From an uncultured Planctomycetota bacterium (GTDB lineage: Bacteria; Planctomycetota; UBA11346), in the NCBI GenBank assembly GCA_963818245.1, contig CAWFSD010000001.1:2749-66748 (forward strand): DNA of 64,000 nucleotides, given 5' to 3'. A model generated the notes under the pieces. The model was not told where the DNA came from and did not search any database. It saw nothing but the letters and a program-made list of their open reading frames with translations. Below are positions 13,976-31,537 of this stretch, piece after piece (within the stretch, counting starts at the first letter, position 1; each line of letters starts with the position of its first letter). The translations under genes were made by a program, and so were the position numbers.

Positions 13976-13978
13976 GCG

Positions 13979-15215: not shown

Positions 15216-15248
15216 GAGAAGATGCGTGGTTGTCGAACCCGGCCGGGC

Positions 15249-15892: not shown

Positions 15893-18118
15893 ATGATGCC
15901 CGGCGGCCCGACCATGACCTTCAGCAGGCTGCTGACGGCGCGCTCGGTGGTCATCGGGTTGATCGCCTCGGCGGTGATGGCGGTGATCGCGCCGCTCAAC
16001 GACTGGGCCCTGGGCAACACCCCCATCTACAACCACTACCTGCCGCTGGGTGTCACCGTGCTGGTGTTGCTGATGGGGCTGGTGGTCAACCCCCTGCTCG
16101 GCGAGCGCCGCCTGCGCAGCGGCGAGATGACGGTCATCGTCAGCATGCTGCTGGTCCTGGGTGGGGTGGCCTCGAGCGGCCTGACCCGCCTGCTGCCCGG
16201 AGTCATGGCCGGGCCCGCCCGGGTGCTTCCGGCGGAGCCGGGCCTGTCGCCATTCCTGGGCAACGGCGAACTGCTGATGCCGCGCCGCGTGTTCGTCGAC
16301 CTGCCCGACCACGGACCGCCCGACCCGAACGACCCCGATCACCGCCTGGTCGTCGACGGCTTCCACAACGGCCTGCCGCAGGGCGCGCCGGTGGTCGGGC
16401 ACCGCGCGACGGTCACCTGGAGCCTGGCCGACGGCAGCGAGCGCACCGCCCTGGCGCTGGCGGGCAAGCGCGCGGCCGAGATGCCCGGCTGCCTCGATCT
16501 CGACCACCTCCCGGGCCTGGCCCTGCTCGGCCACCACGTCGGCGACACCATCGCGACGGCGGGCGGACCCCTGCGCATCGTCGCGGTGGTCCCGCCGGCG
16601 GTGCCGTGGCGGGCGTGGTGGCGGCCCTACCTGGCGTGGCTGCCGCTGCTGCTCGGCGCCTTCATCGCCTGCCTGGCGATCTCGGCGCTGGTGCGCCGGC
16701 AGTGGATCGACCACGAGCGCCTGCCCTTCCCCCTCGCCAACGTCACCCTCGACTTCATGGCCCCGCCCGAGCCGGGCACGCGCCTGGCGCCGATCTTCCG
16801 CGCGCGCGGCTTCTGGCTGGGCTTCGTGGTGGTCGCCGTGGTGCTGGTCAGCCAGGGCCTGGAGACCTGGGGGCTGCTGCCGATGTCGGTGTCGACCACC
16901 TTCGACTTCCGCGACGCCTTCGCGAGCGAGCCCTGGTACCAGGTCTACACGCACTGGGCGCTGTTCCGCGTCAACGTCTACTTCAGCATCGTCGGGCTGG
17001 CCTTCTTCCTGCCGCTCGACCTGAGCTTCAGCCTGTGGTTCTTCTTCGTCGCCACCAACCTGGTGTACATGGTGCTGAAGACCCAGGGCCGCCCGGTCGC
17101 CTATGACGACGCCGGCAAGGTCGGCGTGGGCGGCTTCGCGGTCGAGTGCCTGCTGATCCTGTGGATCGGGCGGCGCCACTACCTGGGCCTGCTGCGCGCC
17201 GCCTTCAGCCGCGGCGGGGACGAGCACCAGCGCCTGCTGGTCCCCTACGTGTGGATGCTGCTCGGCGGCGTGCTCACCATGGCCATGTGGCTGGTCGCGC
17301 TCGGCGCGCAGCCGCACCACGCGCTGGTGGCGGTGCTGCTGTTCCTCGGCTTCGTGCTGGTGCTGGCGCGGGTGGTGGCGGAGGCCGGCATCCCCGCCAT
17401 CGGCCTGCCGGCCGGCTGCCACCTCAGCCAAGTGCTGTTCTCGGTGGTGGGCTTCGGCGCGCCGCTCGCCGCGCTCGCGCCGCTGACCCTGCTCGGCGCG
17501 ACCCTGCTCGGCAACAGCCGCGAGAACCTGCTGCCCTACGCGGTCGACAGCGAGTACCTGGTCAAGCGCACCCTGATCCAGAACACCGTGGCCAAGCGCC
17601 TGCGCTGGACGGGGCTGCTGATCGGGGTGCTGGTCCTGGGCTCGCTGGCGGCGATGATGACCCTGGTCTCGTCCGACTACCAGCGCGACGGCCAGGTCGA
17701 CCGCGCCTGGTACTCCACCCTGGTCGAGCAGGGCCTGATGCCGCTCGCCACCGGCTCCGCGAGCGGCGCCGGCGCCCAGCCCGGCACCTGGTCGTGCTAC
17801 GGGCTGGGCGCCGTGCTGGTCGGGGTGCTCGGCGTGTGCCGCATGTTCCTGTCGTGGTGGCCACTGCACCCGATCGGCTACCTGGTCAGCATGACCGGCC
17901 CGACCCAGGCGATCTGGTTCAGCTTCCTGCTCGCGTGGATGGCCAAGCTGCTGGTCACGCGCTATGGCGGTCCGCAGCTCTACCAGCGCCTCAAGCCGGT
18001 GGCGATGGGCCTGATCGCGGCCGAGGCCGCCACCGCCGGGCTGTTCATGCTGCTCGCCGCGGTGCTGCACTGGTGCGGCATCGACTTCCCGCGCCACGTG
18101 AGCTTCCTGCCGCTATGA
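15893..18118 (+). CDS. Large polytopic membrane protein, paralog 1 (about 15-16 predicted spans with a ~150-aa hydrophilic insert); function unknown, possibly OPT-superfamily-like
   Basis: An intact 741-aa frame with protein-like composition. Hydrophobic spans run throughout. A hydrophilic insert follows span 3 (..FVDLPDHGPPDPNDPDHRLVVDGFHNG..). The motif RRQWIDHERLPFPLA is present and the C-terminus reads ..LVTRYGGPQLYQRLKP... The start may be ATG 15893, 15896 or 15914. Confidence 0.75.
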   Translation: MMPGGPTMTFSRLLTARSVVIGLIASAVMAVIAPLNDWALGNTPIYNHYLPLGVTVLVLLMGLVVNPLLGERRLRSGEMTVIVSMLLVLGGVASSGLTRLLPGVMAGPARVLPAEPGLSPFLGNGELLMPRRVFVDLPDHGPPDPNDPDHRLVVDGFHNGLPQGAPVVGHRATVTWSLADGSERTALALAGKRAAEMPGCLDLDHLPGLALLGHHVGDTIATAGGPLRIVAVVPPAVPWRAWWRPYLAWLPLLLGAFIACLAISALVRRQWIDHERLPFPLANVTLDFMAPPEPGTRLAPIFRARGFWLGFVVVAVVLVSQGLETWGLLPMSVSTTFDFRDAFASEPWYQVYTHWALFRVNVYFSIVGLAFFLPLDLSFSLWFFFVATNLVYMVLKTQGRPVAYDDAGKVGVGGFAVECLLILWIGRRHYLGLLRAAFSRGGDEHQRLLVPYVWMLLGGVLTMAMWLVALGAQPHHALVAVLLFLGFVLVLARVVAEAGIPAIGLPAGCHLSQVLFSVVGFGAPLAALAPLTLLGATLLGNSRENLLPYAVDSEYLVKRTLIQNTVAKRLRWTGLLIGVLVLGSLAAMMTLVSSDYQRDGQVDRAWYSTLVEQGLMPLATGSASGAGAQPGTWSCYGLGAVLVGVLGVCRMFLSWWPLHPIGYLVSMTGPTQAIWFSFLLAWMAKLLVTRYGGPQLYQRLKPVAMGLIAAEAATAGLFMLLAAVLHWCGIDFPRHVSFLPL

Positions 18119-20354
18119 ACCGCGCCGACCGCCCGGTGAGCGACCGCCTCCCGCCGCCGGACAGCGGTCCCGCCCTGACACGGCGCGCCATCGCCATCGG
18201 GGCGGTCGCGGCGGTGCTGTTCGCGCTGGTGACGCCGTACAACGACTGGCAGTACACCAGCTCGTACCTGTACTGCCACTTCATGCCGCCGGGCGTGACC
18301 GTGCTGATGCTGACGCTGGCCCTCGGGGTCAACCCGCTGCTCGGCGCGCGCCGCCTGCGGCTGGGCGAGCTGGCGGTCATCGCCGGGATGCTGCTGGTCC
18401 TCGGTGGGGTGGTGTCTTCCGGCCTCAACCGCTACTTCCCGCAGGTCATCGCGGGGCCCGCCAAGCTGCTGACCACGACCCCGGAGCTGGCGCCGCTGGC
18501 GCCGGTGAACGGCGACGTGGTCCTGCCGACGCGCTTCTTCGTCGGACTGCCGGAGCACGGACCCATCCGCAGCGACGACCCCGAGTACCGCTACGTCGTC
18601 GACGGCTTCAACAACGGCCTGGCGCGCGGCGACCTGTCCGTGGGCCACCGCACGGTGGTCGGCTGGCGCGCTGAAGACGGCACCGTCCACCGCGCGACCG
18701 CCTACAGCGGCGCCCTGGGGCTGGGCGGCGGCGAGGACGTGCTCGACCTCGACGTCCCGCCGGGCCGGCTGCTCGCGGGGCACCGCGCCGGCGACGAGGT
18801 CGAGACCCCGACCGGCCGGGTGCGGGTGCTGACGGTCGAGCGCTGCGGTCTGGGCGGCGTGCCGTGGGACGCGTGGGCGGGCCCCCTGCTGCACTGGTCG
18901 CCGATCCTGCTCGGGGCCTTCGTCTGCTGCCTGGCCCTCAGCGCCCTGGTGCGCCGGCAGTGGATCGACCACGAGCGCCTGCCCTACCCGATCGCCAACG
19001 TGCTGCTCTCCATCGTCGCCGATCCCGATCCCGGCCAGCGCGTTGCGCCGCTGTTCCGTTCGCGCCTGTTCTGGACCGGGCTCGCCATCGCCGCGACGGT
19101 GCTGGTCACGCAGGGACTCAAGGCCTGGGGGGTGCTGCCGGTGGCGATCCCCACCCACTTCGGCTTCCGCGCGATCTTCAGCGAACACGCCTTCGACAAC
19201 GTCTACGCGGGCTTCGCGGTCACCGACCTGGTGCTGTGGTTCTCGGTCGCCGGGCTGGCCTTCTTCCTGCCCCTCGACCTCGGCTTCAGCCTGTGGTTCT
19301 TCTTCCTGGCGACGGTGGCGGGCGTGGCGCTGCTGCGCACCCAGGGCATGCCGGTCACCGAGGACCAGGTGTCGAGCACCGGCGTCGGCGGCTTCGCGGT
19401 GCAGTGCCTGCTCATCCTGTGGGTCGGCCGCCGCTACTACGTCCAGGTGCTGCGCACGGCGCTGCTGGGCGCGGCGATCCGGACCTGCGCGAGGTCACGC
19501 CCTACGTCTGGCTGCTGCTCGCGGGCATCGCGGCGATGGCGGCGACCCTGGTGGCGAACGGCGCGCTGTGGTACCACGCGCTGCTCACCGTGCTGATCTT
19601 CCTCGGCTTCCTGCTGGTGCTGGCGCGCCTGGTCGCCGAGGCCGGGCTGCCGTTCCTGCAGATCCCGACCGGCTACTTCCTGAGCAAGGTGGTGTTCTCG
19701 ATCACCGGCTTCCACCTGCCGCTGGCGGCGCTCGCGCCGCTGCTGCTGATCGGCACCGGCCTGATGGGCGACACGCGCGAGAACCTGATGGCCTACGGGG
19801 TGCACGCCGAGTACCTGGGCCGGCGCGCCGGCGCGCCGCGCCTGGCGGGCAGCGCCGTGCTGCTCGCCGTGGTGGTGGTCGGCGCGCTGCTCAGCGGCGC
19901 GGTCATGCTGGTCATCTACTACGGCGGCGAGCACCCCGCCGACGGCTGGCCGCACTTCTCGCTGCTCGAGCACAACCTCAAACCGCTCGCCAACGGCTGG
20001 AGCGGCGTCGCCACGCCCGACGTCTGGCCGGGCTACGGCCTGGGCGCGGGCGTCACCGCCGTGCTCGGCATCGGGCGCATGCTGTTCTCGGCCTGGCCGC
20101 TCCACCCCCTGGGCTACATCGTCGCGAGCTGCTACCCGACCTGGCTGAACTGGTTCAGCGTGCTGGTCGGCTGGACCGCCAAGGCGCTGGTCCTGCGCTA
20201 CGGCGGACCGCAGCTCTACCAGCGCCTGCGCCCGCTCGCCATCGGCCTGATCGTGGGCGAGGCGCTGGCGAGCGTGCTGTTCATGGTCCTGACCTACCTG
20301 CTGCACCTGTGCGGTTCCGACTTCGCGACCCACCCCCAGTTCCTGCCGCGCTGA
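18115..20354 (+). CDS. Large polytopic membrane protein, paralog 2 (one apparent frameshift near 19470)
   Basis: The ATG overlaps the paralog 1 stop (ATGA). It is colinear with paralog 1, sharing blocks SALVRRQWIDHERLP(F/Y)P, GLAFFLPLDL(S/G)FSLWFFF, VGVGGFAV(E/Q)CLLILW, LVLAR(V/L)VAEAG and RYGGPQLYQRL(K/R)P. The frame switch at ..LLG|(R)GDPDLREVTPYVWLLLAG restores colinearity. Confidence 0.75.
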
Positions 20355-20357
20355 GCC

Positions 20358-21236
20358 GTGACGGACGGTCTCGCCATCCACGGCATCGGCTGCCCCCTGC
20401 CGCGGGGCTGGGAGGCGGTCGGCAGCGCCGGCGGCTGGCGGCGCGGCCAGGTGCTGGTCGCCGCCAGCGATGGCCCGCCCCTGCTCGCCGTCGGCTGGGA
20501 GCGGCAAGCACCGACGTCGGAGCCGCAGCGGTTGCTCGCAGCCCTCGAACGGCGCATGCGCAGCGAACTCGGCTGTGGCGAGCGCCGCGCCTGCAGCGCC
20601 ATCGCCGGGGGCCTGCTGGCGCGCTGGGCGGCGCCCCCAGGCGAGCTGTGCGGTGGGGTGCGCTGCGTGCGCCCGGCGACCGCCGCGGACGCGGAACGCG
20701 GGGTGGCGCTGGTGGTGCGCGCCCTGGCCCCCGCCGGCGTGGCGGCGGCGCACGCGGCCTTGGCCGGCGCCTGGGCGCGCGCCGTTGATCAGCCCACCCC
20801 GCTGCGCATCTACGGGCTCGACCTGGAGCTGCCGCCGTGGTGGCGGCTCGACGGCATGCAGCAGCTCGCCGGCCTGGTGCGCGCGCTGTTCCTGCACCAT
20901 CCGCGGGGCCGCCCCGACCGCATCGCCGGCGCCCTGGTGCTGCGCCGCTTCGCCTGCGCCGGGCGGGTCCTGGCGGGGCGCACGCCGGCGGAGTGGATCG
21001 CGGAGCAGCTCGGGCGGCGCGAGACGGTGCTGTCCAGCGCGGTGGTGGACGGGGTGACCGCCGTGCGCACCCGGCGGCCCGCCCCGGGCTGGTGGCGGCG
21101 CCTGGCCGGGGCCAGCGAGGGACGCAGCTTCCACGCCTGGCTGGAGGCGGCTGGCGACCGCCTGGTCCTGCAGGAGTGGTATGGCACCGGGACGCCGGTG
21201 ATGTGCTTGCGGAGTGCCGTCCCCACAGGAAGTTAG
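20358..21236 (+). CDS. Hypothetical protein (292 aa), no recognisable motif
   Basis: A GTG start lies 3 nt after the upstream stop and the ORF fills the gap in the operon. The composition is Ala/Arg/Gly/Leu-rich but contains W-rich blocks (LDLELPPWWRLDGMQQLAGLVRALFLHH). The call rests on position and coupling only. Confidence 0.5.
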   Translation: MTDGLAIHGIGCPLPRGWEAVGSAGGWRRGQVLVAASDGPPLLAVGWERQAPTSEPQRLLAALERRMRSELGCGERRACSAIAGGLLARWAAPPGELCGGVRCVRPATAADAERGVALVVRALAPAGVAAAHAALAGAWARAVDQPTPLRIYGLDLELPPWWRLDGMQQLAGLVRALFLHHPRGRPDRIAGALVLRRFACAGRVLAGRTPAEWIAEQLGRRETVLSSAVVDGVTAVRTRRPAPGWWRRLAGASEGRSFHAWLEAAGDRLVLQEWYGTGTPVMCLRSAVPTGS

Positions 21237-21240
21237 CTCC

Positions 21241-21600
21241 ATGGCCGCCCCCTCCGCCAGCATGCCCGGCGCGCCCGCCCCCGGCATTCCGCGGCTCACC
21301 CCCGGTGTCGAGCTGCAGCGGCTCGACGGAGGGCTCGTGCGCCTGCGCGGGGCCCCCTTCCGGCGCGGTGCCGCGCACCGCCTGGTCGCGCGCTGGCTGC
21401 GCCTGCCGGAGCGCCTCGAGGTCGAGCTGGACGAGCTCGGCGCGTTCGTGGTCACGCGCTGCGACGGCCGCGACCTGGAGACCCTCGCCGGCGATCTCGC
21501 CGCCCACCTCCGGCTGACGCGCCGCGAGGCGCGCGTCGCGCTCGCCGACTTCCTGCGCCTGCTCGAGCGCCGCCGGCTGCTGCGCGTGGTCCCGGCATGA
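21241..21600 (+). CDS. PqqD-family / RiPP-recognition-element-like small protein
   Basis: The 119-aa sequence ..VELDELGAFVVTRCDGRDLETLAGDLAAHLRLTRREARVALADFLRLLERRRLL fits, by eye, the PqqD pattern (x-L-[ND]-x-x-[GA]-x-x-[IV]W-x-x-x-DG-x-x-[TS]..I/L...L.......a..D[VL]..FL..L...GL[LI]). GTG 21214 is an alternative start. Confidence 0.55.
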   Translation: MAAPSASMPGAPAPGIPRLTPGVELQRLDGGLVRLRGAPFRRGAAHRLVARWLRLPERLEVELDELGAFVVTRCDGRDLETLAGDLAAHLRLTRREARVALADFLRLLERRRLLRVVPA

Positions 21601-23402
21601 CCCGCCCGCCGCCGCAGCCGTCCGGAACCACTTCCAGCGCCCGCCAGCGGGCGCAGATCGGGCCGCCGCGCGTGCTGCCGCTGCGCGTCGCCGCGCAGGT
21701 GGCGTGGCGCTCGATCCGCGTGCGCCTGGTGCGCAGCCTGGTCAGCGTCTCGTCGGTGGTCCTGGCGGTCGCCTTCCTGCTCGCGGTGCTCGGCCAGGGC
21801 CTGACCGAGGCCAACGTCTACCGCCGCTGGCGCGCCCAGAGCCTGCCCGGCGAGCAGCTGGCGCAGCTGCGCGAGGTGCTCGCCCGTCCGCGCAGCGTCG
21901 CCGAGCTGCTGCGCCTGGTGGCGCGCGCGCCCGCGCCCGCCCAGCCGGTCGCGGACGCTGTCCCGCCCGGCACCGCGCAGACGGCGGTGCGCCTGATCGC
22001 GTGGGCCGCCGCGCTCAAGCCCACCCACGCCTACCTGCTGACGCGCAACCGCGACCTGGCGGACTGGGCGCTGCACGTCGACTCGCCGGCCGCGGTCGAC
22101 GCGCTGATCGCCAGCGCCGCGGGCTTCACCGGCCGGCGCCTGCCGCTGGCGCGCGAGGAGCTGATCACGCTGTCGCGGCACGCGCCGGGCCTCGCCGCCG
22201 CGGTCGACGCGCTGCGCCTCGCCGAACCGGCGCGCCTGGCGCGCGTCGCCGCGGCCGGCGGCGTCGAGGCGGTGCTCGACCTGGTGCAGCGCGGCGCCGC
22301 GCCCGGCGACCTGCGCGAGGCCGGCCTGCCCCTCGACGAGGCGCTGCCGGGGCTGGACGCCGCGCAGACCCACGCGCTGCGCGAGCAGATCCGCATCGAG
22401 CGCCTGCGCACGCGCGCCGCCGCGGTGCTGGCCGAGGCCAACCGCATCGATCCCTCGCTGCTGCGCACCCAGGACGTCACCGACTGGGCCGCGCTGGCCC
22501 GCGCCTGGCCGGGCAACCGCCTGCTCGCCCGCCTCGAGCTGCTCTTCGGCGTCGATGGCGTCCACTCGCCCGACCCCGCGCGCCTGGTCCACGACGCGCA
22601 GGCGCAGGGCGAGCTGGTCACCGCGCTCGACCGCGAGCTGGCGCGCCCCGAACTCTACGACGAAGAGGCGTGGCGCCAGGAAACGCTGCCGGCCGAGGCG
22701 CTCGGCCTGCTCAAGCAGAACCTCGCGCGCATGGCCGAGCGCCGGCTGACGCGCCTCAACCGCCTGCTGCTCGAGCACGCGCTCGCCCCCGCGCTGACCG
22801 GCGGGCCCGCGCTCGAGACCTTCGACCTGCGCCAGATCGTCGGCGACCACCCCGACGCCACCGGTGCGCGCACGCGCGCGCTGGTGACCGCCGCCCTCGG
22901 GGCGGACGGCGCCGCCGAGCTGCGCGCCGAGCTGCTGCAGCGCGCCCAGCTCGAGGAGCTGGCGCGCACCTTCGCCGGCGACCGCGGCACCCCGGGCGGC
23001 GGGCGCACGGTGTGGCTGGTGGTGCTGTCGCTGCTGGTGTGCGTGGTCGGCATCGTCAACACCATGATGATGGCGGTCACCGAGCGCTTCCGCGAGATCG
23101 CCACCATGAAGTGCCTGGGCGCGCTCGACTCGTTCATCGTCAAGTCGTTCCTCATCGAGTCCGCGGCCATGGGCGTGGCCGGTTCGCTGGTCGGGGTGGT
23201 GCTGGGCCTGGCGCTGGTGGTGGTGCAGGCCGCGACGCGCTTCGGGGCGGTGTTCTGGGCGACCCTGCCGGTCGCCGACCTGCTCGCCGCGTGCGTCGCC
23301 GGCATGGTCGCCGGACTGGTCCTCGCCGTCCTCGGCGCGCTGCTGCCGGCGCTGGTGGCGGCGCGCATGCACCCGATCGAAGCGATGCGGGTGGACGCGT
23401 GA
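21597..23402 (+). CDS. FtsX/MacB-type ABC permease with a ~400-aa extracytoplasmic insert
   Basis: The ATG overlaps the upstream stop (ATGA). The TM1 region RVRLVRSLVSVSSVVLAVAFLLAVLG is followed by a long Ala/Leu/Arg-rich helical segment. The C-terminal FtsX module follows: VVGIVNTMMMAVTERFREIATMKCLGALDSFIVKSFLIESAAMGVAGSLVG...LLPALVAARMHPIEAMRVD. Confidence 0.75.
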   Translation: MTRPPPQPSGTTSSARQRAQIGPPRVLPLRVAAQVAWRSIRVRLVRSLVSVSSVVLAVAFLLAVLGQGLTEANVYRRWRAQSLPGEQLAQLREVLARPRSVAELLRLVARAPAPAQPVADAVPPGTAQTAVRLIAWAAALKPTHAYLLTRNRDLADWALHVDSPAAVDALIASAAGFTGRRLPLAREELITLSRHAPGLAAAVDALRLAEPARLARVAAAGGVEAVLDLVQRGAAPGDLREAGLPLDEALPGLDAAQTHALREQIRIERLRTRAAAVLAEANRIDPSLLRTQDVTDWAALARAWPGNRLLARLELLFGVDGVHSPDPARLVHDAQAQGELVTALDRELARPELYDEEAWRQETLPAEALGLLKQNLARMAERRLTRLNRLLLEHALAPALTGGPALETFDLRQIVGDHPDATGARTRALVTAALGADGAAELRAELLQRAQLEELARTFAGDRGTPGGGRTVWLVVLSLLVCVVGIVNTMMMAVTERFREIATMKCLGALDSFIVKSFLIESAAMGVAGSLVGVVLGLALVVVQAATRFGAVFWATLPVADLLAACVAGMVAGLVLAVLGALLPALVAARMHPIEAMRVDA

Positions 23403-23473
23403 GGATCGTCGAGCAGCGTTGGGAGCCGCGCGCGGGGCTGGTGGTGGACTGGCGTCGCCCCAGCCGCCGGGGG

Positions 23474-23607
23474 GAGGCGCGAGGCGCGAGGCGCGAGGCG
23501 CGAGGCGCCGGGACGCGGTCGCCCGGCTCGCTCAGGCGGGGATCAGCGCCGCGCTGGGCGGGCGTGGCGTCGCCGCCCTCGCGCCTCGTGCCTCGCGCCT
23601 CGCGCCT
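23474..23607. repeat. Palindrome with GAGGCGC heptamer tandem arms inside the operon
   Basis: Five tandem gaggcgc units (23474-23508) face ctcgcgcctcgtgcctcgcgcctcgcgcct (23578-23607) across a ~70-nt loop. The element sits in the only sizeable intergenic gap of the operon. Its right arm overlaps the probable start of the next gene. Confidence 0.75.
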
Positions 23608-26600
23608 TTCCTGCTGATCGCGCTGGCGCTGCCTGGCCGCGCCCGGCGCCTCGGCCGCGGAGCCGGACCTCGATCCCAACGCCATCCGCTCCCTCGCCGA
23701 GACCCTCATCGCCATCCCCGAGCGCACCATGGGCACGCCCGGCGCCGAGCAGGCGCTGAGCGTGCTCGAGCACCGCCTGCAGGCCGCGGGCCTGACGCCG
23801 CTGCGCGTGCGCACCACGGTGACGGTGGCGGCCGACCGCGGGTCGTGGCTGGAGGTCGGCGGCAAGCGCCTGGCGATCGCGCCCCACCAGAGCAACCACG
23901 CGGCCACCGCCGGCACCGGCGGGCGCACCATCTCGGCGCGCCTGGTCTTCGCGGGCCGCGGCACGCTGCCCGAGCTCGGCGGCAAGCCGATCGCCGGCAA
24001 CATCGTGGTCCTCGACGGCGACGCGCGCAGCGGCTGGACCACGGTCGCGTCGCTGGGCGCGGCGGCGGTGGTGTTCCGGCGCAGCGACGGCATGGACGGC
24101 TACCACCTCGCCGGCCAGACGGTGGCGGCGAGCCTGGTCTTCCCGCGCTTCGTCGCCGACCTCGATCCGGCGCTGGACGGCCAGCCGGCGCTGCTGCAGT
24201 CCGAGGTCGCCTGGGAGCCGCGCGCCGCGAGCTCGCTGATCGCGCTGATCCCCGGCACCGGCAGCGGGCGCGAGGCGGTGGTGCTGACCGCCGGCTACGA
24301 GGCGGGCGGGCCGATCGACCACCTCACTCCTGGCGCGACCCGGGCCTGGAACGCCGCGCTGCTCGCCGAGCTGGCGGTCGCGCTGGCGAAGGCGCCGCCG
24401 CAGCGCAGCGTCCTGGTGGTCTTCAACGGCGGCCGCGCCGAGTACTTCCGCGGCCTGCGCCAGGTGATGGGCGCGCTGACCCTCGACCGCCAGTCCGACC
24501 GCGGGCTGTCCCCCGCCAACCGCATCGTCGACCTGCTCGGCGACGCCGAGGCCGCGCGCTCGCGCACCATGCTGGTCGCCGACACCCTGGCCGCCGTCGA
24601 TCCCGCCGGTGCCGGCCTGGCCGAGGCGCTGCGCCGCGGCCTGCGCCAGCGCATCCCGGCCGGTGCGGACGCCGCCGAGCAGGGCCGCCAGGCGCAGCTG
24701 CTGCTCGAACTGGTGCTCGCCAACGAGGCCGGCGACCGCGCCGACGTGCTGCTCGAGGGCGTCGACCACCTGCGCGAGCGCCAGGCGGAGCTGCGCCGCG
24801 GCGGCAGCGCCGACGCCCTCGCCCAGGTGCGGAGCGAGCTCGCCAAGGAGGAGCCGGTCTACCAGCGCTGGCGCTCGCTGCAGCAGCGCCTCGACTACGG
24901 CAAGGACCTCGACGAGGACGGCGACCGCGCGCTCGGCGAGCTGCTGCCGGCGGCGCGCGCCCTGGTCGCGCGCCACCGCAGCGTGGTCGACGACCGCGCC
25001 GCCGACCTGCGCAGCCTGGCGGCGGCGCGCGCGCTGGCGGCGAAGCTCGACCCCATCCACCTGGTGGCCCTCGACTTCAGCGACGGCAACGACGCCTTCT
25101 CGACCGCCACCGGCGGCTTCTTCGTGACCTGGTCGAACGACCTCAGCTGGCTGCACAAGGCGGTGCTCAAGCTCGCCACCGGCGGCGCGCTGCGCAGCGC
25201 CTACGACCCGGCGCCGCAGCAGCTGCCCGCGGACAGCGGCGCGTTCTTCCCCGCCGAGTGGATGCACGAGGCCGGCGCGGTCGGCAACTTCCTGCCCGCG
25301 GTGACCTTCGCCACCACCAACGACGCGCGCCTGCGCGTCGGCACCCCGCTCGACACCGCCGCGGCCTTCCGCGCCGGCGCCTTCCTGCACCAGTGCGCGG
25401 GGCTGCTGCCGCTGCTGAGCGCCTACATCGACTGCCCCGACATCGCCGACCGCAAGCCCAAGACGCTGGTCTTCAAGCAGCCGCTGATCGGCGTCGAGGC
25501 GCGCGCCACCGGGTCGAAGAACGGCCGCCGGCCCTTCCCCTTCGCGCTCAGCACCATGGTCTTCGGCTGGCGCTCGGACCTGGTCGGCGACGTGCGCGCC
25601 TGGGAGACGGAGTGGGGCGACCTCGCCGGCAACGCCCAGGTGCTGTTCGAGAGCGAGTTCTCGCCCGGCATGGGCCACGGCCTGCCGCTGACCATCTACG
25701 GCTGCGACGCGCGCGGCGGCATCACCCACGTCATCGCCAGCGGCGGGCAGCAGAAGACCAACCCGGGGCTGGAGCTGGGCATCAACCAGAAGCTCGAGGA
25801 CAAGCTGGTGCTGCTGTTCCGCGCCGTCCCCAGCCGCCTGCACGGCGCCTTCGACCCGCGCCTGCTCACCGAGCTCGGCGCGGTCACGCCGCTCTCGGCC
25901 TACCGCAACGCGCAGCCGAACTTCTACCACTGCGAGGCCGCCGACGGGCAGATCGCGGTGTTCACCGAGCCCGACGTGCCGCTGCTGGTCACCGCCTCGC
26001 AGGGCCGCGTCGGCAACCGCCTGGTGCTGCTCGGCGAGCCCGGGGCCAAGGCCGGCGACTACGCCGGGCGCGGCGCCGGCGGCGCGCTCGCGCGGTTGAC
26101 CCCGCTCGACGCCGCCGAGGACATGTGGCACCTGGACGAGCAGCGCCTCGCGCTGCTGCGCCACAGCGGCATCGAGCCGGACAGCCTGGTGACCCTGCAC
26201 GCCGCCGCCGAGCGCCAGCTGACCCTGGCGCGCCAGGCCTGGCAGCGCGGCGACATCGCCGGCGCCAGCGGCGCCGCGCAGGCCTCGTGGGCGCTGACCA
26301 GCCGCGTCTACCCCAACCTGCTCGCCACCGCCAACGACGTGGTCTACGGCCTGGTGGTGCTGCTGTTCTTCGCCATCCCCTTCGCGCTGATCTGCGAGCG
26401 CCTGTTCCTGGCCGGCGGGACCGTGGTGCGCAAGGTCGCGGGATTCGCCGGCTGCTTCACCGCGGTGTTCCTGTTCTTCCTGTGCTTCCACCCGGCGTTC
26501 TCGCTCGCCACCACGCCGATGATCATCTTCCTCGCCTTCGTCATCATCCTGATGAGCATGTGGGTCATCGGCATCATCGCCGCGCGCTTCGAGCAGGAGA

Positions 26601-28452
26601 TGGAGACGATCCGCATGGCCGGCGAGGGCCACCACCGCGCCGACGTCAGCCGCCTGGGCGTGCTGCTCGCCACCGTCGCGCTCGGCACCAGCAACATGCG
26701 GCGCCGCCCGCTGCGCACCGCGCTGACCGCGGCGACGGTGGTGCTGATGACCTTCATCCTGCTGACCTTCGCCGGCTTCAACCCGGTCAACGGCACCCAG
26801 CGCATCGCCCTCGACGCGCCGGCCCCCTACCAGGGCGTGCTGCTGCGCTTCAACGGCTGGTCGGCCCTGCCGGAGCCCACCCTCGAGCGCATGGAGTCGA
26901 GCTGGGGCACGCAGCTGGTCGCCTACCCGCTGCGCTGGCTGCAGCCCTCGACCGAGGTGCCCAAGTTCCCGCTCAGCGGACCGGGCGGCACCAGCCAGGT
27001 CACCGGCGTGGTCGGCGTGCGCGCCGGGCGACCCCACCGGCATCGAGACCGCGCTGCTGCGCGGCCCCGCCGCGGTCGGCACGCCGCGCGGCTTCGGCAG
27101 CGAGGGCGACTGGCTGTTCCTGCCCGAGGAGATCCTGCGCCGCATCGGCGTGCAGCCGGGCGGGAAGCTGCGCTTCCGCGGCCGCGAGATGACGGCCGGG
27201 CTGATCGACGTGCGCGCCCTGGCCGGCGTCACCCAGCTCGGCGGCGAGGCCCCGACGCCGCTCGCCCTCGAGGCCCTCGAGCAGGGCCAGGCCGCCGCCC
27301 AGGCCAGCAGCGCGAGCGGCGACGCGCCGAGCGTCGAGAGCAACTCGGTGCGTGCACCTCGGCGCCGCGGCGGTGGCGGTGGCGCGCGCCGAGACCGTCG
27401 CCGGGCTGGGCGGCACGCTGCGCGCCATCAGCCTGGTGCCGCGCGACGCCAGCATCGACCTCGCCCACCTCGCCGACGACCTCGCGCAGCAGGTCGCGAC
27501 CACCCTGCGCGTCGGCGACCAGGGCGAGAGCTACCTGCTGACCGGGGTCAGCCGCATCTCGGTCGCCGGCCTGGGCTCGGTGCTGGTGCCGCTGGTCCTC
27601 GGCGGCCTGGTGATCTTCTCGACCATGCTCAACTCGGTGGCGGAGCGCGGGCGCGAGATCTTCATCTACGCCTCGCTCGGCCTGTCGCCGACGCACGTCG
27701 CCGCGCTGTTCCTGGTCGAGGCCGGCATCTACGCGGTGCTCGGCGGCATCGGCGGCTACATGCTGGCGCAGGGCACGGTCTCGGCGCTCGGCTTCGCCGC
27801 CGACCTCGGCTTCGGCACGCGGCCGGACCTCAACTACTCCAGCTTCGCCGCGGTGCTGACCATCCTCATCGTCATGGCCACGGTGCTGCTGTCGGCGCTC
27901 TACCCGGCGCTGGTCGCCTCGCGCACCGCCAACCCGGGCAGCGGCGGCGAGTTCCGCCTGCCCAAGCCGGAGGGTGACAGCATCGCCGCCGCCTTCCCCT
28001 TCACCGTCGCGGCGCGCGACATCCGCGGCCTGCTCGCCTTCCTGCGCCGCTGGCTCGAGCTGCACACCGAGGCTTCGACCGGCGCCTTCACCGCGGCCGA
28101 GGCGTTCCTGACCATCGACGACCCGCGCTTCGCGGTCACCGCCACGACCTGGCTGGCGCCCTTCGACCTCGGCATCAGCCAGCGCTTCACCCTGATCGCC
28201 GAGCGCACCGACGTGGCGGCGATCTACGCGGTGCGCATCGAACTCGAGCTGCTGTCCGGCCAGCGCTCGGCGTGGCGCCGCGCCAACGTCGCCTTCATGC
28301 GCCAGCTGCGCCAGCAGTTCCTGGTCTGGCGCACGCTCGCGCCCGAGGCCATGGACCGCTACCGCGCCGCCGGTGGCGATGAGCAGGCGGGCGTGCGCCT
28401 GGCGGCCCACCTGCCCGCGCCGGCCCTGCCGACGGTCGGGGACGCCCCATGA
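23588..28452 (+). CDS. Giant (~1620 aa) fusion: signal peptide, PA-domain/M28-peptidase-like periplasmic region (apparently ligand-less), multi-span region, MacB-type FtsX permease module, C-terminal soluble domain; about four apparent frameshifts
   Basis: The tentative GTG 23588 gives M-PRASRL-FLLIALALPG..ASA|AEPD, a signal-peptide shape, after two indels near 23605 and 23635. The main frame 23672-27030 reads ..RTMGTPGAEQALSVLEHRLQAAGL.., then a PA-like block (ISARLVFAGRGTLPELGGKPIAGNIVVLDG..GAAAVVF), then ..LIALIPGTGSGREAVVLTAGYEAG... TM clusters lie at ~26340-26590. MacB TM1 is NMRRRPLRTALTAATVVLMTFILLTFAG. Frames switch at 27026-27028 and ~27345. The FtsX module is 27550-27930 (FSTMLNSVAERGREIFIYASLGLSPTHVAALFLVEAGIYAVLGG). 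About 170 further aa run to the stop at 28452. Confidence 0.7.
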
Positions 28453-30431
28453 GCGCCCTCGCCGACCGCGAACTGCAGCAGTACCGCGACCTGGTCAAGG
28501 CGCCGGGGACCTGGGACGACGGCTTCAGCTGGCGCACCCTGCTCGGCGCGGTGTTCGTCGGCCTGCTCATGCTGCCGGCCTCGATGTACATGAGCCTGGC
28601 CATCGGCGAGGGCATCGGCCCGGCGGCCAAGTGGGTGACGGTGATCCTCTTCCTGGAGGTCGCCAAGCGCGCGCGCTCGTCGCTGAAGCCGGCCGAGATC
28701 TTCATCCTCTTCGCCATGGTCGGCACGCTGGTCGGCAGCCCGATGCAGAGCTTCTTCTGGAACCAGTTCCTGGTCCAGTCCGAGGCGGCGCGCGGCTTCG
28801 GCCTGACCGACAGCTTCCCGACCTGGTTCGCGCCCAGCGACCCGGCGGTGCTCGACAAGCGCAGCTTCTTCATGTGGGAGTGGTTCGTGCCGATCGTGCT
28901 GCTGTTCATCTCGCAGGTGATCGGGCGCATCGACAGCCTGGTGCTGGGCTACGGCCTGTTCCGCGTCACCAGCGACATCGAGAAGCTGCCCTTCCCGATG
29001 GCGCCGATGGGCGCGGCCGGCGTCACCGCGCTGTCGGAGAACCTGACCGGCAACGAGGGCTGGCGCTGGCGCTGCTTCTCGATCGGCGCGGCCTTCGGCC
29101 TGGTCTTCGGCTTCATCTACGCCGGCGTGCCGGTGATCTCGACCGCGCTGGGCATGAACGCGCCGCTGCAGATCCTGCCGCTGCCGTGGCTGGAGACCTC
29201 GACCACCACCCAGGACCTGCTGCCGGCGACGCCCACCGGCATCAGCTTCGACCTCGGCAACTTCTTCCTCGGCATGGCGCTGCCGTTCTTCGGCGTGGTC
29301 GGCGCGGCGCTGGCCCTGGTCATCACCTGCATCGCCAACCCGCTGCTGTTCAAGTACCACGTGCTGACCAGCTGGAAGCCGGGGATGAGCACCACCGAGA
29401 TCCTCTACAACAACAGCGTCGACTTCTACCTCAGCTTCGGCATCGGCCTGGCCCTGGCGGTGGCCGGCATCGGCATCTGGCAGTGCCTGGCGACGCTGCG
29501 GCGCGGGCGCGAACCGTCGTTCGACCGCGCCACGGTGGTGGCGGCGCCGGCGCGCCCTTCGCGCGCACGCGGCGACATCCGCACGCCGCTGATCATCGCC
29601 ACCTACCTGGCCAGCTCGACCTTCTACATCCTGCTGTGCGGCTTCCTGCTGCACTGGGACTTCCGCGGCAGCCGGCTGCTGTGGGTGCTGCTGTTCTTCG
29701 CCTTCATCTACACGCCGCTGGTCAGCTACGTCACCGCCCGCCTGGAGGGCCTCGCCGGCCAGGCCCTCGACCTGCCCTACATCCGCGAGGCGGCCTTCAT
29801 CTTCTCCGGCTTCCACGGCATCGAGATCTGGCTGCTGCCCATCCCGATGCGCAACTTCGGCGGCGAGGACACCGTCAACTACCGCATCGCCGAGCTGGTC
29901 GGCTGCTCGTTCCGCTCGATCTGGAAGATGACCCTGGTGGTGACGCCGCTGGTGTTCGCGCTGTCGGTCCTCTACGGCCAGTTCATCTGGTCGCTCGGCC
30001 CCATCCCCGGCCCGCAGTACCCCTACGCCCAGCAGCTGTGGGAGCTGAACGCGCGCCAGCAGTGCCTGGTCTACACCGCCACCACGGGCGGCTTCAGCCC
30101 GTTCATGGAGGCGGTCAAACCCGGCATCATCGCCGCCGGCGGCGTCATCGGCGTGGCCACCTACGCCGGGCTGTCGGCCTTCGGCCTGCCGGTCCTGCTG
30201 CTCTACGGCGTGGTCAAGGGCCTCGGCGGCTCGATCCCGCAGTACCTGCTGCTGCAGCTGGTCGGCGCGCTGTTCGGGCGCTACGTGCTCGAGCGGCGCT
30301 TCGGCTCCGAGCGCTGGCGCGGCTACGCGCCGGTGCTGTTCGCCGGCTATTCCTGCGGCGCCGGCCTGGCCACGGCGTTCGCGGTGGGCGTCAAGTTCCT
30401 CTCCGCCTCGGTGTTCCAGCTGTCGTTCTGA
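28449..30431 (+). CDS. Large polytopic membrane protein (660 aa), third member; possibly OPT-superfamily-like
   Basis: The ATG overlaps the upstream stop (ATGA). The ORF is intact with about 14-16 hydrophobic spans. The motif DIEKLPFPMAPMGAAGVTAL parallels HERLPFPLA in the two paralogs upstream. Confidence 0.7.
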   Translation: MSALADRELQQYRDLVKAPGTWDDGFSWRTLLGAVFVGLLMLPASMYMSLAIGEGIGPAAKWVTVILFLEVAKRARSSLKPAEIFILFAMVGTLVGSPMQSFFWNQFLVQSEAARGFGLTDSFPTWFAPSDPAVLDKRSFFMWEWFVPIVLLFISQVIGRIDSLVLGYGLFRVTSDIEKLPFPMAPMGAAGVTALSENLTGNEGWRWRCFSIGAAFGLVFGFIYAGVPVISTALGMNAPLQILPLPWLETSTTTQDLLPATPTGISFDLGNFFLGMALPFFGVVGAALALVITCIANPLLFKYHVLTSWKPGMSTTEILYNNSVDFYLSFGIGLALAVAGIGIWQCLATLRRGREPSFDRATVVAAPARPSRARGDIRTPLIIATYLASSTFYILLCGFLLHWDFRGSRLLWVLLFFAFIYTPLVSYVTARLEGLAGQALDLPYIREAAFIFSGFHGIEIWLLPIPMRNFGGEDTVNYRIAELVGCSFRSIWKMTLVVTPLVFALSVLYGQFIWSLGPIPGPQYPYAQQLWELNARQQCLVYTATTGGFSPFMEAVKPGIIAAGGVIGVATYAGLSAFGLPVLLLYGVVKGLGGSIPQYLLLQLVGALFGRYVLERRFGSERWRGYAPVLFAGYSCGAGLATAFAVGVKFLSASVFQLSF

Positions 30432-30448
30432 TCCCGGGAAGCCACGCC

Positions 30449-31249
30449 ATGAACCAGCCGACCAGCACCTACCAGACCTACTGGGACCCCGAGAGCAACG
30501 CGCGCCACCGCGAGTACGCCACCGGGCGCACGGTGATCGTGCGCGCGCGCGACGTGCGCAAGGTCTACCAGCGCGGCAACGCCGAGCCGGTGCAGGCGCT
30601 GCGCGGCGTGACCATGGAGATCTACGCCGGCGAGTACCTGGCGATCATGGGCCCGTCGGGCTCGGGCAAGTCGACCTTCTTCAACGCCATCGGCGGCCTC
30701 GACCGCCCGACCTCGGGCCAGGTCTACATCGACGAGGTCGACATCGCCCAGCTCGACGCGCGCGAGCTGGCCTGGCTGCGCTGCCGCAAGATCGGCTACA
30801 TCTTCCAGAGCTACAACCTGATCCCGGTGATGACCGCGATCGAGAACGTGATGCTGCCGATGACCTTCGCCGGCACGCCCGGCGACGTGGCGCGGCACAA
30901 GGCCGCCGGGCTGTGCGAGCTGGTCGGCATCGGCCACCGCCTGGACAACAAGCCGAGCGAGCTCTCCGGCGGGCAGCAGCAGCGCGTCGCCATCGCGCGC
31001 AGCCTGGCCAACGACCCGGCGATCATCCTGGCCGACGAGCCGACCGCGAACCTCGACTCCAAGACCGGCCTGGAGATCATCCGCCTGCTGGTGGAGCTCA
31101 AGATCAAGAAGGGCGTGACCATCATCAGCGCCACCCACGACCACGAGATGCTCGCGGTCAGCGACCGCGTGCTGTGGATCAAGGACGGCACCGTCGACCG
31201 CGTCGAGCTGCGCGAGGACCTGAAGATCGAGAAGGGGTCGATCGGCTGA
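30449..31249 (+). CDS. ABC transporter ATP-binding protein, LolD/MacB/FtsE-like
   Basis: Walker A GPSGSGKST, Q-loop IFQSYNL, signature LSGGQQQRVAIARSL, Walker B IILADEPTANLD and H-loop ISATHD are all present. A ~25-aa N-terminal extension precedes them. Intact. Confidence 0.9.
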   Translation: MNQPTSTYQTYWDPESNARHREYATGRTVIVRARDVRKVYQRGNAEPVQALRGVTMEIYAGEYLAIMGPSGSGKSTFFNAIGGLDRPTSGQVYIDEVDIAQLDARELAWLRCRKIGYIFQSYNLIPVMTAIENVMLPMTFAGTPGDVARHKAAGLCELVGIGHRLDNKPSELSGGQQQRVAIARSLANDPAIILADEPTANLDSKTGLEIIRLLVELKIKKGVTIISATHDHEMLAVSDRVLWIKDGTVDRVELREDLKIEKGSIG

Positions 31250-31280: not shown

Positions 31281-31421
31281 GCCGCAGAGACGCAGAGGTG
31301 CAGAGAGGGCCGCAGAGGAGATGGGAGCGGACGTGGCATTGTGGAACCCGAGTGATCTCCATGTGGCGCTGGGGCAGGCCGTCCTCTGCGGCCCTCTCTG
31401 GAGCTCTGCGCCTCTGCGGCC
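31281..31421. repeat. Palindrome with GCAGAGG-type heptamer arms at the operon 3' end
   Basis: gccgcagagacgcagaggtgcagagagggccgcagaggag faces gtcctctgcggccctctctggagctctgcgcctctgcggc, a near-perfect reverse complement by eye, across a ~60-nt loop. It begins 32 nt after the ATPase stop. Confidence 0.75.
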
Positions 31422-31537
31422 ATGAACCCGGAGCGAAGCCGGCGACCCGTTCAACAGAAGCGCTCGTGCTTGTATCGGGATATTCGCGCGCGAGGGTCAC
31501 TGCGGCCACCTGTCCACGAGTCACAACGGAGCGTCCC

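Follow-up and report, generated by a model that had tools for sequence, protein, structure and literature searches.

The analysed window, a stretch of 64,000 nucleotides from an uncultured Planctomycetota bacterium (GCA_963818245.1, contig CAWFSD010000001.1), contains eight consecutive co-directional genes on the forward strand between positions 15893 and 31249. They are referred to here as g1 to g8, and their families as A to G, according to the following features:

15893..18118 (+), g1, family A: polytopic membrane protein of 741 aa (DUF6785 + DUF6784)
18115..20354 (+), g2, second family A paralog of about 746 aa, with one frame break near 19471
20358..21236 (+), g3, family B: 292-aa cytoplasmic protein with predicted tandem Mog1/PsbP-like domains
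21241..21600 (+), g4, family C: 119-aa PqqD-family (RRE-type) peptide-binding protein
21597..23402 (+), g5, family D: 601-aa FtsX/MacB-type permease with a roughly 415-aa extracytoplasmic insert between TM1 and the FtsX module
23469..23607 (+), hairpin with tandem-heptamer arms at the g5-g6 junction
23588..28452 (+), g6, family E: protein of about 1620 aa with, in this order, a signal peptide, a catalytically dead M28/PA domain, a long periplasmic region, three extra membrane spans, an FtsX-type 4-TM module and a conserved cytoplasmic tail; frame breaks near 27022 and 27352, and probably near 23609 and 23632; alternative start at GTG 23399
28449..30431 (+), g7, family F: 660-aa polytopic protein with a predicted OPT/Yellow-Stripe fold
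30449..31249 (+), g8, family G: 266-aa MacB/LolD/FtsE-class ABC ATPase

Gene organisation and protein families

The GC content at third codon positions (GC3) is about 0.95-1.0 in one forward-strand frame along 15.9-31.2 kb, which marks eight consecutive coding units, and it rises at the ATG of g1 at 15893. The genes are connected by ATGA overlaps at 18115-18118, 21597-21600 and 28449-28452 or separated by gaps of 3 nt (20355-20357), 4 nt (21237-21240) and 17 nt (30432-30448). The observation made in the first-pass annotation, namely a tightly packed eight-gene operon of this content, was thus confirmed.

The only larger gap (23403-23587) holds an inverted repeat whose arms consist of tandem heptamers (GAGGCGC x5 and CCTCGCG x4.4), with a predicted RNA folding energy of -127 kcal/mol (z-score -7.3). 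The hairpin is unique in the window, while the close relative L005 (one of the homologous loci compared here) has a hairpin at the same place built from a different heptamer. However, g6 could also start at GTG 23399, overlapping the g5 stop codon as GTGA, since this frame is the frame of the g6 body and is interrupted only by a TGA at 23615. L005 has an uninterrupted 1679-aa ORF starting at the equivalent ATGA, so that the apparent gap may be partly coding.

In the window itself g2 and g6 are out of frame. The L005 ortholog of g2 is one intact ORF which aligns to the window in two frames at 86% and 90% amino acid identity, and the window lacks one base relative to L005. Intact homologs of g6 map to three frames in a tblastn search, and its breaks near 27022 and 27352 are single-base insertions relative to L005. 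According to our reading of the three frames, a convincing signal peptide for g6 requires two more single-base repairs near 23609 and 23632.

Both Pfam models of g1 scored above the curated cut-offs (DUF6785, E 5.8e-69; DUF6784, E 2e-23), and the two pieces of g2 together cover both domains. The g2 ortholog of L005 is 52% identical to g1. A crude hydropathy count gave at least 14 membrane spans for g1, for which the first-pass annotation had proposed 15-16.

No Pfam, NCBIfam or PDB sequence match was detected for the family B protein, which the first-pass annotation had left as an unknown. Its AlphaFold2 model (pLDDT 80.5, pTM 0.74) matched TplEi/Tli4 over two domains in a Foldseek search and PsbP, Mog1, MTC28, LpqN and SciW per domain. 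The family comprises 1087 representatives at E<=1e-3. The family C protein matches Pfam PqqD above the cut-off (E 5e-7). Its family profile hits the lasso-peptide PqqD chaperone 9x90_B (2.2e-5) as well as TbiB1 and PqqD, and NCBIfam PqqD-type models match 18 of 29 members. B and C are fused in five loci and adjacent elsewhere, from which it is inferred that they act together.

In the family D permease TM1 lies at residues 40-58 and Pfam FtsX at residues 474-593. The profile hits 5xu1_M (5e-22), MacB (1e-19), LolF, LolC, LolE and YtrF in the PDB, whereas the insert matches no Pfam family in 24 of 24 members. The family E profile hits the M28 aminopeptidases 2ek8 (7e-19) and 6hc6 (6e-17) and the transferrin receptor (4e-4). 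Among 24 E proteins Pfam FtsX was detected in 24, Peptidase_M28 in 11 and Nicastrin in two. The zinc-ligand His and the bridging Asp of the M28 domain are replaced in all 24 orthologs examined, in agreement with the earlier claim that no active protease is encoded. E has about 900 + 260 periplasmic residues, including a helical stretch that weakly matches coiled-coil proteins, and its cytoplasmic tail has no PDB match.

Family F is the most conserved member of the cluster, with an identity of 45-51% across phyla. Many homologs carry precomputed OPT hits (PF03169), although the protein of the window itself has neither a Pfam OPT hit at E<=0.01 nor a PDB sequence match. The Foldseek search with its model returned barley YS1 (7wst) as the only match (E 4e-8, TM-score 0.56-0.61), yet the model is of low confidence (pLDDT 53.5). 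The first-pass annotation had regarded the membrane proteins as OPT-like in general, but only F has fold-level support. For the DUF6785 proteins the link to F is weak (hhalign probability 11%) and rests on one shared motif, E-(K/R)-L-P-F-P, which resembles the OPT/YSL motif L-x-Y-P-S-G and represents a lead rather than a test.

The family G ATPase scored at 2.9e-64 against NCBIfam LolD and at 5.4e-63 against the MacB nucleotide-binding domain, both below the equivalog cut-offs. Walker A, Q-loop, LSGGQ, Walker B and H-loop are all intact, both in the first-ATPase and in the second-ATPase positions of the loci.

Conservation and genomic context

The gene set was found in at least 556 species-level genomes, mainly of Planctomycetota and Verrucomicrobiota with a few labelled Fibrobacterota or Polyangiaceae. 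In the 80 loci retrieved from these the same families occur in the same tight order, with median intergenic distances from -4 to 44 nt (E-F -1 nt, G-E -4 nt, C-D -4 nt), which argues against a chance juxtaposition. Among the 40 loci covered by at least 19 kb, E is present in 39, D in 39, G in 38, C in 37 and B in 35, while the count of 24 for A is an underestimate because A often lies beyond the flank. The arrangement of two permeases with one ATPase, which had been likened to LolCDE, is specific to the clade of the window, since 31 of the 40 long loci carry two ATPase genes. F-A pairs occur without D, E or G in two loci, so that F and A may work on their own.

No membrane-fusion protein, outer-membrane factor, radical-SAM or other modifying enzyme is conserved in or beside the cluster, and the gaps between the genes are too small for a precursor peptide gene, in agreement with the first-pass annotation. 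No substrate gene was detected, and among flanking ORFs of at least 90 aa no neighbour recurred in 10 or more loci. The cluster therefore appears to be a self-contained module.

Synteny and placement by profile and structure searches had been named beforehand as points on which the interpretation could fail, and both came out in its favour. Synteny is strongly conserved across phyla. The searches place the individual domains in known folds (FtsX/MacB-type permease, MacB/LolD-class ATPase, PqqD, M28/PA, OPT/Yellow-Stripe fold, DUF6785/DUF6784) but do not place the set in any characterised system. The NCBIfam scores lie far below the LolC/E, LolD, MacB and FtsX/FtsE cut-offs. Full-text literature searches retrieved no paper on the cluster. 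The earlier interpretation as an ATP-driven envelope machine is supported, with the corrections given above for the ATPase number, family B and the OPT-like proteins, and with the peptide ligand remaining an inference.

Proposed function and alternative explanations

Of the explanations considered, the most likely, although still tentative, is that the operon encodes one composite inner-membrane and periplasmic machine conserved as a unit in Planctomycetota, Verrucomicrobiota and some other diderm bacteria. Its motor would be an uncharacterised type VII (MacB/LolCDE-fold) ABC module, in which the ATPase G drives two unlike FtsX-type permeases, D and E. As in other type VII systems, ATP hydrolysis in the cytoplasm is expected to move the large periplasmic parts of D and E rather than to open a channel through them. 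Domains such as the dead M28/PA domain of E serve as binding modules in transferrin receptor and nicastrin. F, whose gene is almost always translationally coupled to that of E, would provide the path across the membrane, and the DUF6785 proteins are probably a second such unit. At the inner face, the peptide binder C and the tandem Mog1/PsbP-like protein B would form a two-module adaptor. We propose that the ligand is a peptide or an unfolded protein segment, which would be passed between the periplasmic dead-peptidase module and the cytoplasmic B-C adaptor through F and A, with ATP supplying force or gating. The peptidase-like domain of E, the PqqD family of C, the fold of B (whose Foldseek hits include SciW, solved bound to the Rhs1 transmembrane domain) and the OPT fold of F all have precedents in peptide or protein binding.

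The folds, the loss of the catalytic residues, the intact ATPase motifs, the co-inheritance, the gene coupling and the B-C fusions are supported computationally, whereas the physical assembly of the parts, the peptide nature of the ligand and the direction of transport are inferred, the assembly without support from an experiment or a complex prediction. Import and export are regarded as about equally likely. Furthermore, OPT-family members also carry metal chelates, the only solved relative, YS1, carrying an iron-phytosiderophore complex, and known type VII systems act on lipoproteins, lipids, haem and cell-wall hydrolases as well as on peptides.

Among the alternatives, none of which seems likely, the least doubtful is a regulator similar to FtsEX-EnvC, in which the ABC module transports nothing but uses ATP to switch the dead-peptidase domain of E, and this in turn activates or restrains a separately encoded periplasmic hydrolase such as a cell-wall enzyme, while F and A take up the released fragments and B-C binds them in the cytoplasm. 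The fusion of an FtsX module to a dead peptidase-fold domain recalls EnvC, the partner of FtsEX and likewise a degenerate peptidase-fold activator, and the OPT fold of F would suit the uptake of short peptides. However, no hydrolase gene is conserved in or beside the cluster, the dead domain is M28/PA and not LytM/M23, FtsX and FtsE scores are far below the cut-offs, and no obvious role remains for a cytoplasmic PqqD plus Mog1/PsbP adaptor. Somewhat less likely is a Lol- or YbbAP-like extractor, in which D, E and G pull a hydrophobic envelope component (a lipoprotein, lipid or lipid-linked precursor) out of the inner membrane and pass it along the very large periplasmic region of E towards the outer membrane, with F and A flipping or delivering the molecule and B-C chaperoning its hydrophobic part in the cytoplasm. 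The two unlike permeases with one ATPase in the window, the Lol proteins among the PDB hits of D, the large periplasmic region of E, the similarity of B to SciW and to LpqN (described in its PDB entry as involved in cell envelope biogenesis) and the precedent of YbbAP-TesA as a type VII extractor are consistent with this. Points against it are the scores far below the LolC/E (47 against 362) and LolD (217 against 308) equivalog cut-offs, the lack of a conserved LolA-like or outer-membrane partner nearby and the two ATPase genes of most lineages.

It also seems unlikely that the operon is a decaying pseudogene cluster in this particular genome, despite the break in g2, the two non-compensating breaks in g6 and the in-frame TGA at 23615. 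After each break the correct frame keeps GC3 near 1.0, the pieces remain 86-97% identical in protein to L005 against 88-94% DNA identity, and housekeeping genes in the window (tsaD-like, sulfite reductase) are split in the same way, while L005 has an intact 585-aa sulfite reductase ORF. This pattern fits assembly indel errors. Even less probable is the uptake of a metal chelate or polyamine-like small molecule by F and A acting like Yellow-Stripe transporters with the ABC module as an accessory. The only structural match of F is YS1, an F-A pair lies next to a Spermine_synth-domain membrane protein rather than next to D, E and G in two loci (L047 and L032), and the genes for TonB, ExbB and ExbD follow the cluster in another (L001). 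However, these contexts are limited to two and one of 80 loci, respectively, no chelator-biosynthesis gene is conserved with the cluster, no riboswitch was detected near it, and PqqD and M28/PA modules are not known to have a role in chelate uptake. A similarly improbable scenario is the export of, and self-protection against, a ribosomal peptide (RiPP) whose precursor and modifying enzymes are encoded elsewhere and whose leader peptide would be recognised by B-C. C is indeed closest to lasso-peptide and PQQ leader-peptide chaperones, and MacB-type ABC systems export or resist peptides. Nevertheless, no precursor, radical-SAM, YcaO, lasso cyclase or protease gene occurs in or beside the cluster in the 80 loci, as judged in the flanks from ORFs of at least 90 aa, the identity of F across phyla is unusually high for a natural-product cluster, and B is a binding fold and not an enzyme.

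Comparison with characterised systems

The cluster of the window shares with LolCDE two different FtsX-type permeases and one MacB/LolD-class ATPase. It differs in the scores and the ATPase number given above, in the unmatched insert of D and in E, which is four times the size of LolE and carries a dead M28/PA domain, three extra membrane spans and a cytoplasmic tail. Moreover, the set comes with OPT-fold, PqqD and Mog1/PsbP-like partners, and no LolA-like partner is seen. MacAB-TolC and the Gram-positive MacB-like peptide-resistance pumps (e.g. PDB 5xu1) provide the best sequence matches of the FtsX modules and a match of the ATPase to the MacB nucleotide-binding domain. In contrast to these, the ATPase is not fused to the permease, no membrane-fusion protein or outer-membrane factor is conserved nearby, and the MacB periplasmic core domain was detected in only one of 24 E proteins and in none of the D proteins.

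FtsEX-EnvC likewise combines a type VII ABC module with a catalytically dead peptidase-fold periplasmic element, but in the cluster this element is of the M28/PA type and fused to the permease, no amidase or other hydrolase is linked, FtsX and FtsE scores are well below the cut-offs, and OPT-fold and cytoplasmic adaptor components are additionally present. With the OPT/Yellow-Stripe-like transporters F shares the predicted fold and, in many homologs, the PF03169 hits. However, known OPT transporters work alone as proton symporters, whereas F is gene-coupled to an ABC permease. Finally, C shares its PqqD-family domain with the PqqD/RRE leader-peptide chaperones of RiPP pathways (PqqD, lasso B1/TbiB1), but instead of a precursor peptide or modifying enzyme its constant partner is a tandem Mog1/PsbP-like protein, to which it is sometimes fused, and its context is a membrane transport cluster.

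Boundaries, junctions and sequence quality of the operon

The window has a G+C content of about 72%, and the third-codon-position G+C is near 1.0 in coding frames, which makes the frames easy to follow. From 15.9 to 31.2 kb a single signal on the + strand runs through eight consecutive coding units (g1 to g8), and the observation of an eight-gene operon made in the first-pass annotation is therefore confirmed. The junctions between the genes are exactly as described there, and the following features of the operon and its surroundings were recorded:

18115, 21597 and 28449 (+): ATGA overlaps
20355-20357 (+): 3 nt gap
21237-21240 (+): 4 nt gap
30432-30448 (+): 17 nt gap
23403-23587 (+): the only larger gap, at the g5-g6 junction
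23469-23607: inverted repeat with arms of tandem heptamers
31298-32125 (+): ORF without a Pfam match just downstream of the ATPase gene
12299-13411 (-): tsaD-like gene split across frames
32222-34149 (-): sulfite reductase gene split across frames
8056-8157 and 48093-48195: a second family of palindromes with repeat-built arms
51113-51416: a 152-nt unit repeated twice in tandem at 96% identity

Upstream of the operon lie a 329 nt gap and a divergent gene for a ribosome hibernation factor. Downstream lie the ORF at 31298-32125 and the convergent sulfite reductase gene, so that the unit is bounded as proposed in the first-pass annotation. The downstream ORF has a counterpart at 13036-13692 (+) in locus L005, which originates from a metagenome-assembled genome of a Planctomycetota bacterium, but it is not conserved in other loci. 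It may be co-transcribed with the operon. A consensus scan for promoters and terminators was uninformative, revealing one promoter-like site on the minus strand in the upstream gap and terminator-like sites at background level. No riboswitch or other known RNA element was detected near the cluster in the window or in six further loci.

The inverted repeat at the g5-g6 junction, with arms built from the heptamer GAGGCGC, is predicted to fold into a very stable hairpin (-127 kcal/mol, z-score -7.3). L005 has a hairpin at the same place (5022-5162) which is built from a different heptamer (GTGCGGA) and has a folding energy of -90 kcal/mol, both hairpins having z-scores near -7.5. The hairpin sits where most other lineages carry the first ATPase gene, and in L005 it lies inside an open reading frame. 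The palindromes at 8056-8157 and 48093-48195 consist of (AATCTCCCC)n ... (GGGGAGATT)n around a shared inner stem, GAATCCGCAGATTTGGG. The genome therefore seems to carry a class of hairpins with tandem-repeat arms.

The reading frame changes once in g2, near 19471, and twice in g6, near 27022 and 27352. L005, which is 88-94% identical to the window at the DNA level, carries both genes as intact ORFs, its g6 comprising 1679 aa and being ATGA-coupled to g5, and the differences are single-base indels. After each break the correct frame keeps its codon bias and shares 86-97% protein identity with L005. The two housekeeping genes, the tsaD-like gene and the sulfite reductase gene, are split in the same way, while L005 has an intact 585-aa ORF for the sulfite reductase at 13783-15540 (-), which points to indel errors throughout this assembly. 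Hence, the breaks are most likely assembly errors and not signs of decay of this operon. The 5' end of g6 is ambiguous. The start at GTG 23588 proposed in the first-pass annotation gives a good signal peptide only after two further one-base repairs, according to our reading of the frames. Alternatively, GTG 23399 overlaps the stop codon of g5, as the start does in L005, and this frame is interrupted only by TGA 23615.

Predicted functions of the gene products

The products of g1 and g2 (family A) are polytopic proteins with DUF6785 and DUF6784 domains, both above the Pfam gathering scores (233 and 83 bits in g1; 177/50 and 89 bits in the g2 pieces). A profile search against the PDB with family A gave nothing usable. 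Based on the sequence analysis no match was obtained for the product of g3 (family B) in Pfam, NCBIfam or the PDB. However, an AlphaFold2 model of usable quality (pLDDT 80.5) shows two alpha/beta units, which Foldseek links to the two-domain immunity protein TplEi/Tli4 and, per domain, to PsbP, Mog1, MTC28, LpqN and SciW, the latter having been solved bound to a transmembrane domain. The predicted fold is a binding fold and not an enzyme fold. Family B is large, with 1087 representatives at 50% clustering. The product of g4 (family C) is a PqqD-family domain, the closest solved relatives of which are lasso-peptide and PQQ leader-peptide chaperones.

The product of g5 (family D) has a first transmembrane helix (TM1), followed by an insert of roughly 415 aa without any match and an FtsX module closest to 5xu1, MacB, LolF and YtrF. 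The product of g6 (family E) is predicted to start with a signal peptide and a domain of roughly 310 aa homologous to M28 aminopeptidases with a PA insert. The profile of this domain hits 2ek8 at 7e-19 and 6hc6 at 6e-17, and Pfam Peptidase_M28 was detected in 11 of 24 orthologs; the domain is more distantly related to transferrin receptor and, in Pfam, to nicastrin. Residues were mapped from the alignment with 2ek8 onto the alignment of the 24 orthologs. The zinc-ligand His is replaced by Tyr, Leu, Val, Phe or Met, the bridging Asp by an invariant Ala, and the catalytic Glu-Glu pair by Asp-Asn, Asp-Gly, Gly-Gly, Gly-Ser and the like, the last two ligands lying outside the aligned region. Since these residues are replaced in all 24 orthologs examined, the domain is a pseudo-peptidase, and an active protease role for E was rejected. 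The domain is followed by several hundred periplasmic residues without matches, three extra membrane spans with invariant polar residues, the FtsX-type module and a conserved cytoplasmic tail of roughly 170 aa, for which a PDB profile search was likewise without a usable result.

The product of g7 (family F) is the best conserved member of the cluster, with 45-51% identity across phyla. The window protein has no Pfam hit at E<=0.01 and its profile gave no usable PDB match, whereas many homologs at 46-51% identity carry precomputed hits to the OPT family (PF03169), one of them marked faint. An AlphaFold2 model, built from a 14-sequence alignment and of low confidence (pLDDT 53.5), was used only for its single stand-out match in Foldseek, the barley Yellow-Stripe 1 transporter (7wst and 7wsr at E 4e-8 and 1e-7, TM-scores 0.56-0.61), the next hits having TM-scores near 0.1. 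Comparison of A with F by hhalign and hmmsearch revealed only a weak local similarity around an E-(K/R)-L-P-F-P motif, and we therefore do not claim that A has the OPT fold. The product of g8 (family G) is an ATPase of the MacB/LolD/FtsE class, with LolD, the MacB nucleotide-binding domain and FtsE as best NCBIfam matches. Walker A, Q-loop, signature, Walker B and H-loop are intact in the window's ATPase and in both ATPase positions elsewhere.

Conservation and genomic context of the cluster

A scan of one genome per species with an alignment of family F detected at least 556 genomes, of which the best 80 loci were analysed. Their record titles name Planctomycetota (including Phycisphaerae), Verrucomicrobiota (including Opitutales and Akkermansiaceae), Kiritimatiellae, Lentisphaeria and Victivallales, Fibrobacterota and Chitinivibrionales, and Polyangiaceae. 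Mapping family by family revealed the same set almost everywhere, and this synteny rules out a chance juxtaposition. The commonest gene order is A-B-C-D-G-E-F-G, followed by A-D-G-E-F-G-B-C, while the window's clade has the order A-(A)-B-C-D-E-F-G and lacks the first ATPase gene. Among 40 loci of at least 19 kb, E was found in 39, D in 39, G in 38, C in 37 and B in 35, and 31 carry two or more ATPase genes. The genes are tightly packed everywhere, with median gaps of -1 nt for E-F and -4 nt for both G-E and C-D.

B and C are fused into single ORFs of 435-499 aa in five loci (L022 12887-14386 (-), L029 7376-8683, L037 12723-14069 (-), L067 7625-9010 (-) and L080 1284-2597), which argues that they act together. 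Two loci (L047 7538-15495 and L032 45-8367) carry an F-A pair without D, E or G, located after a 670-790-aa membrane protein with a Spermine_synth domain and before a GGDEF protein; in L032 an IS200-like transposase gene (2055-2780) is inserted between the Spermine_synth gene and F. The F-A pair may therefore be a separable unit. In a further variant, L019 (4782-12634), E and F are followed by a 221-aa FtsX-only protein, and no ATPase, B, C or A gene lies nearby.

No further family recurs in the flanks, neither in an all-against-all clustering of flank ORFs nor in a Pfam scan of 136 downstream ORFs, in which the top family was present in 5 of 136. In one Verrucomicrobiia genome (L001 13960-18377) the cluster is followed on the same strand by genes encoding TonB, ExbB, two ExbD proteins and an M3 oligopeptidase, which was not seen as a recurrent feature in other loci. 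Full-text literature searches on DUF6785/DUF6784 (PF20581/PF20580), on FtsX proteins together with PqqD, OPT, M28, PA, nicastrin or DUF1795, and on type VII/MacB systems in Planctomycetota found no paper on the cluster, and the 2018 review of the MacB family mentions none of these partners. Furthermore, no curated family or solved structure was found that covers the cluster as a system.

Proposed mode of action and comparison with known systems

The type VII ABC systems FtsEX, LolCDE, MacB and YbbAP use ATP to move periplasmic domains rather than to open a channel. By analogy, we infer that D, E and G form the motor, that the pseudo-M28/PA domain of E serves as a periplasmic binding module, that F, and probably A, provides the path across the membrane, and that B and C bind the ligand or the tail of a partner at the cytoplasmic face. 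The ligand is most simply a peptide or an unfolded protein segment, as four of the component types (the OPT fold, PqqD, the M28/PA module and the Mog1/PsbP-like fold) have precedents in peptide or protein binding, whereas the data do not discriminate between import and export. The computational analysis itself establishes the folds (that of F with the caveat of its low-confidence model), the intact ATPase motifs, the loss of the peptidase residues, the co-inheritance and coupling of the genes and the fusion of B with C, while the assembly into a motor, mechanical work in the periplasm, ligand binding and transport remain inferences.

Other scenarios appear less likely, in the following order. 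The cluster may encode a regulator resembling FtsEX-EnvC that acts on an unlinked hydrolase, or an extractor of a hydrophobic envelope component resembling Lol or YbbAP. A Yellow-Stripe-like uptake of a metal chelate or polyamine-like compound or, finally, the export of a ribosomal peptide encoded elsewhere may also be considered.

It is also possible, although unlikely, that the cluster represents a previously unrecognised class of hybrid transporter, in which an OPT-fold protein, normally a stand-alone secondary transporter, is mechanically driven or gated by a type VII ABC motor, with a dead-aminopeptidase receptor in the periplasm and a PqqD/Mog1-like catcher in the cytoplasm. Such a machine could move peptides or unfolded protein segments across the inner membrane of Planctomycetota, Verrucomicrobiota and their relatives, and could be a molecular basis for the macromolecule uptake reported in planctomycetes.

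[quoted passage not shown] The present cluster would be another, widespread in phyla in which envelope biology is poorly understood. Its function is still inferred, and conserved clusters of unknown function are common in these phyla, but the hypothesis is directly testable in tractable relatives. Three combinations are unexpected and without precedent: the pairing of an ABC motor with a predicted OPT-fold protein, a PqqD-type peptide chaperone outside any peptide-modification pathway, and the fusion of a dead aminopeptidase to an FtsX permease. The cluster also provides a first context for DUF6785/DUF6784 and defines two families that matched no profile model, the tandem Mog1/PsbP-like protein B and the cytoplasmic tail of E.

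The first-pass annotation had interpreted the operon as a possible ATP-driven envelope machine that fits neither RiPP export, MacAB-TolC, Lol nor FtsEX as described, and this interpretation was supported, the handling of a peptide-like ligand remaining an inference. It had named placement in a characterised system and lack of synteny as grounds for refutation, and neither was observed. Membership of the Lol system was rejected since D scores 47 bits against a cut-off of 362 for lolCE and G scores 216.6 against 307.75 for LolD, and no LolA-like partner was found in the flanks. The arrangement of two unlike permeases served by one ATPase, which the first-pass annotation had likened to LolCDE, is true of the window and its clade, whereas 31 of 40 long loci carry two ATPase genes. 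Membership of the MacAB and FtsEX systems was likewise rejected. In contrast to MacAB-TolC, the ATPase is encoded by a separate gene and no membrane-fusion protein family recurs in the flanks. With respect to FtsEX, the FtsX models score 26-37 bits against cut-offs of 225-255, and FtsE scores 194 against 265.

The PqqD-family recognition domain of RiPP biosynthetic clusters is present in C. However, no precursor peptide or modifying enzyme (radical SAM, YcaO, lasso protease or cyclase, and the like) was found in the window flanks, in the downstream flanks scanned with Pfam or in the clustering of both flanks, in which ORFs of at least 90 aa were considered, and median intergenic gaps of -4 to 44 nt leave no room for a precursor inside the cluster. 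It is therefore not a RiPP cluster. Likewise, E shares the fold of the catalytic domain of M28 metallopeptidases with a PA insert but is not an M28 peptidase, and F has the predicted OPT/Yellow-Stripe fold (TC 2.A.67) with only borderline sequence membership of the family. The sequence criteria of the type VII (MacB/FtsX-fold) ABC systems, on the other hand, are fulfilled. Pfam FtsX is above the cut-off in D and E and in 24 of 24 orthologs of each, the PDB matches are MacB, 5xu1, LolF, YtrF, LolC/E and FtsX, a crude hydropathy analysis is consistent with TM1, an extracytoplasmic domain and three C-terminal TM helices, and the partner ATPase is of the MacB/LolD/FtsE class with intact catalytic motifs. 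The cluster is thus built from known folds in a new and strongly conserved combination, and represents another candidate type VII ABC system.
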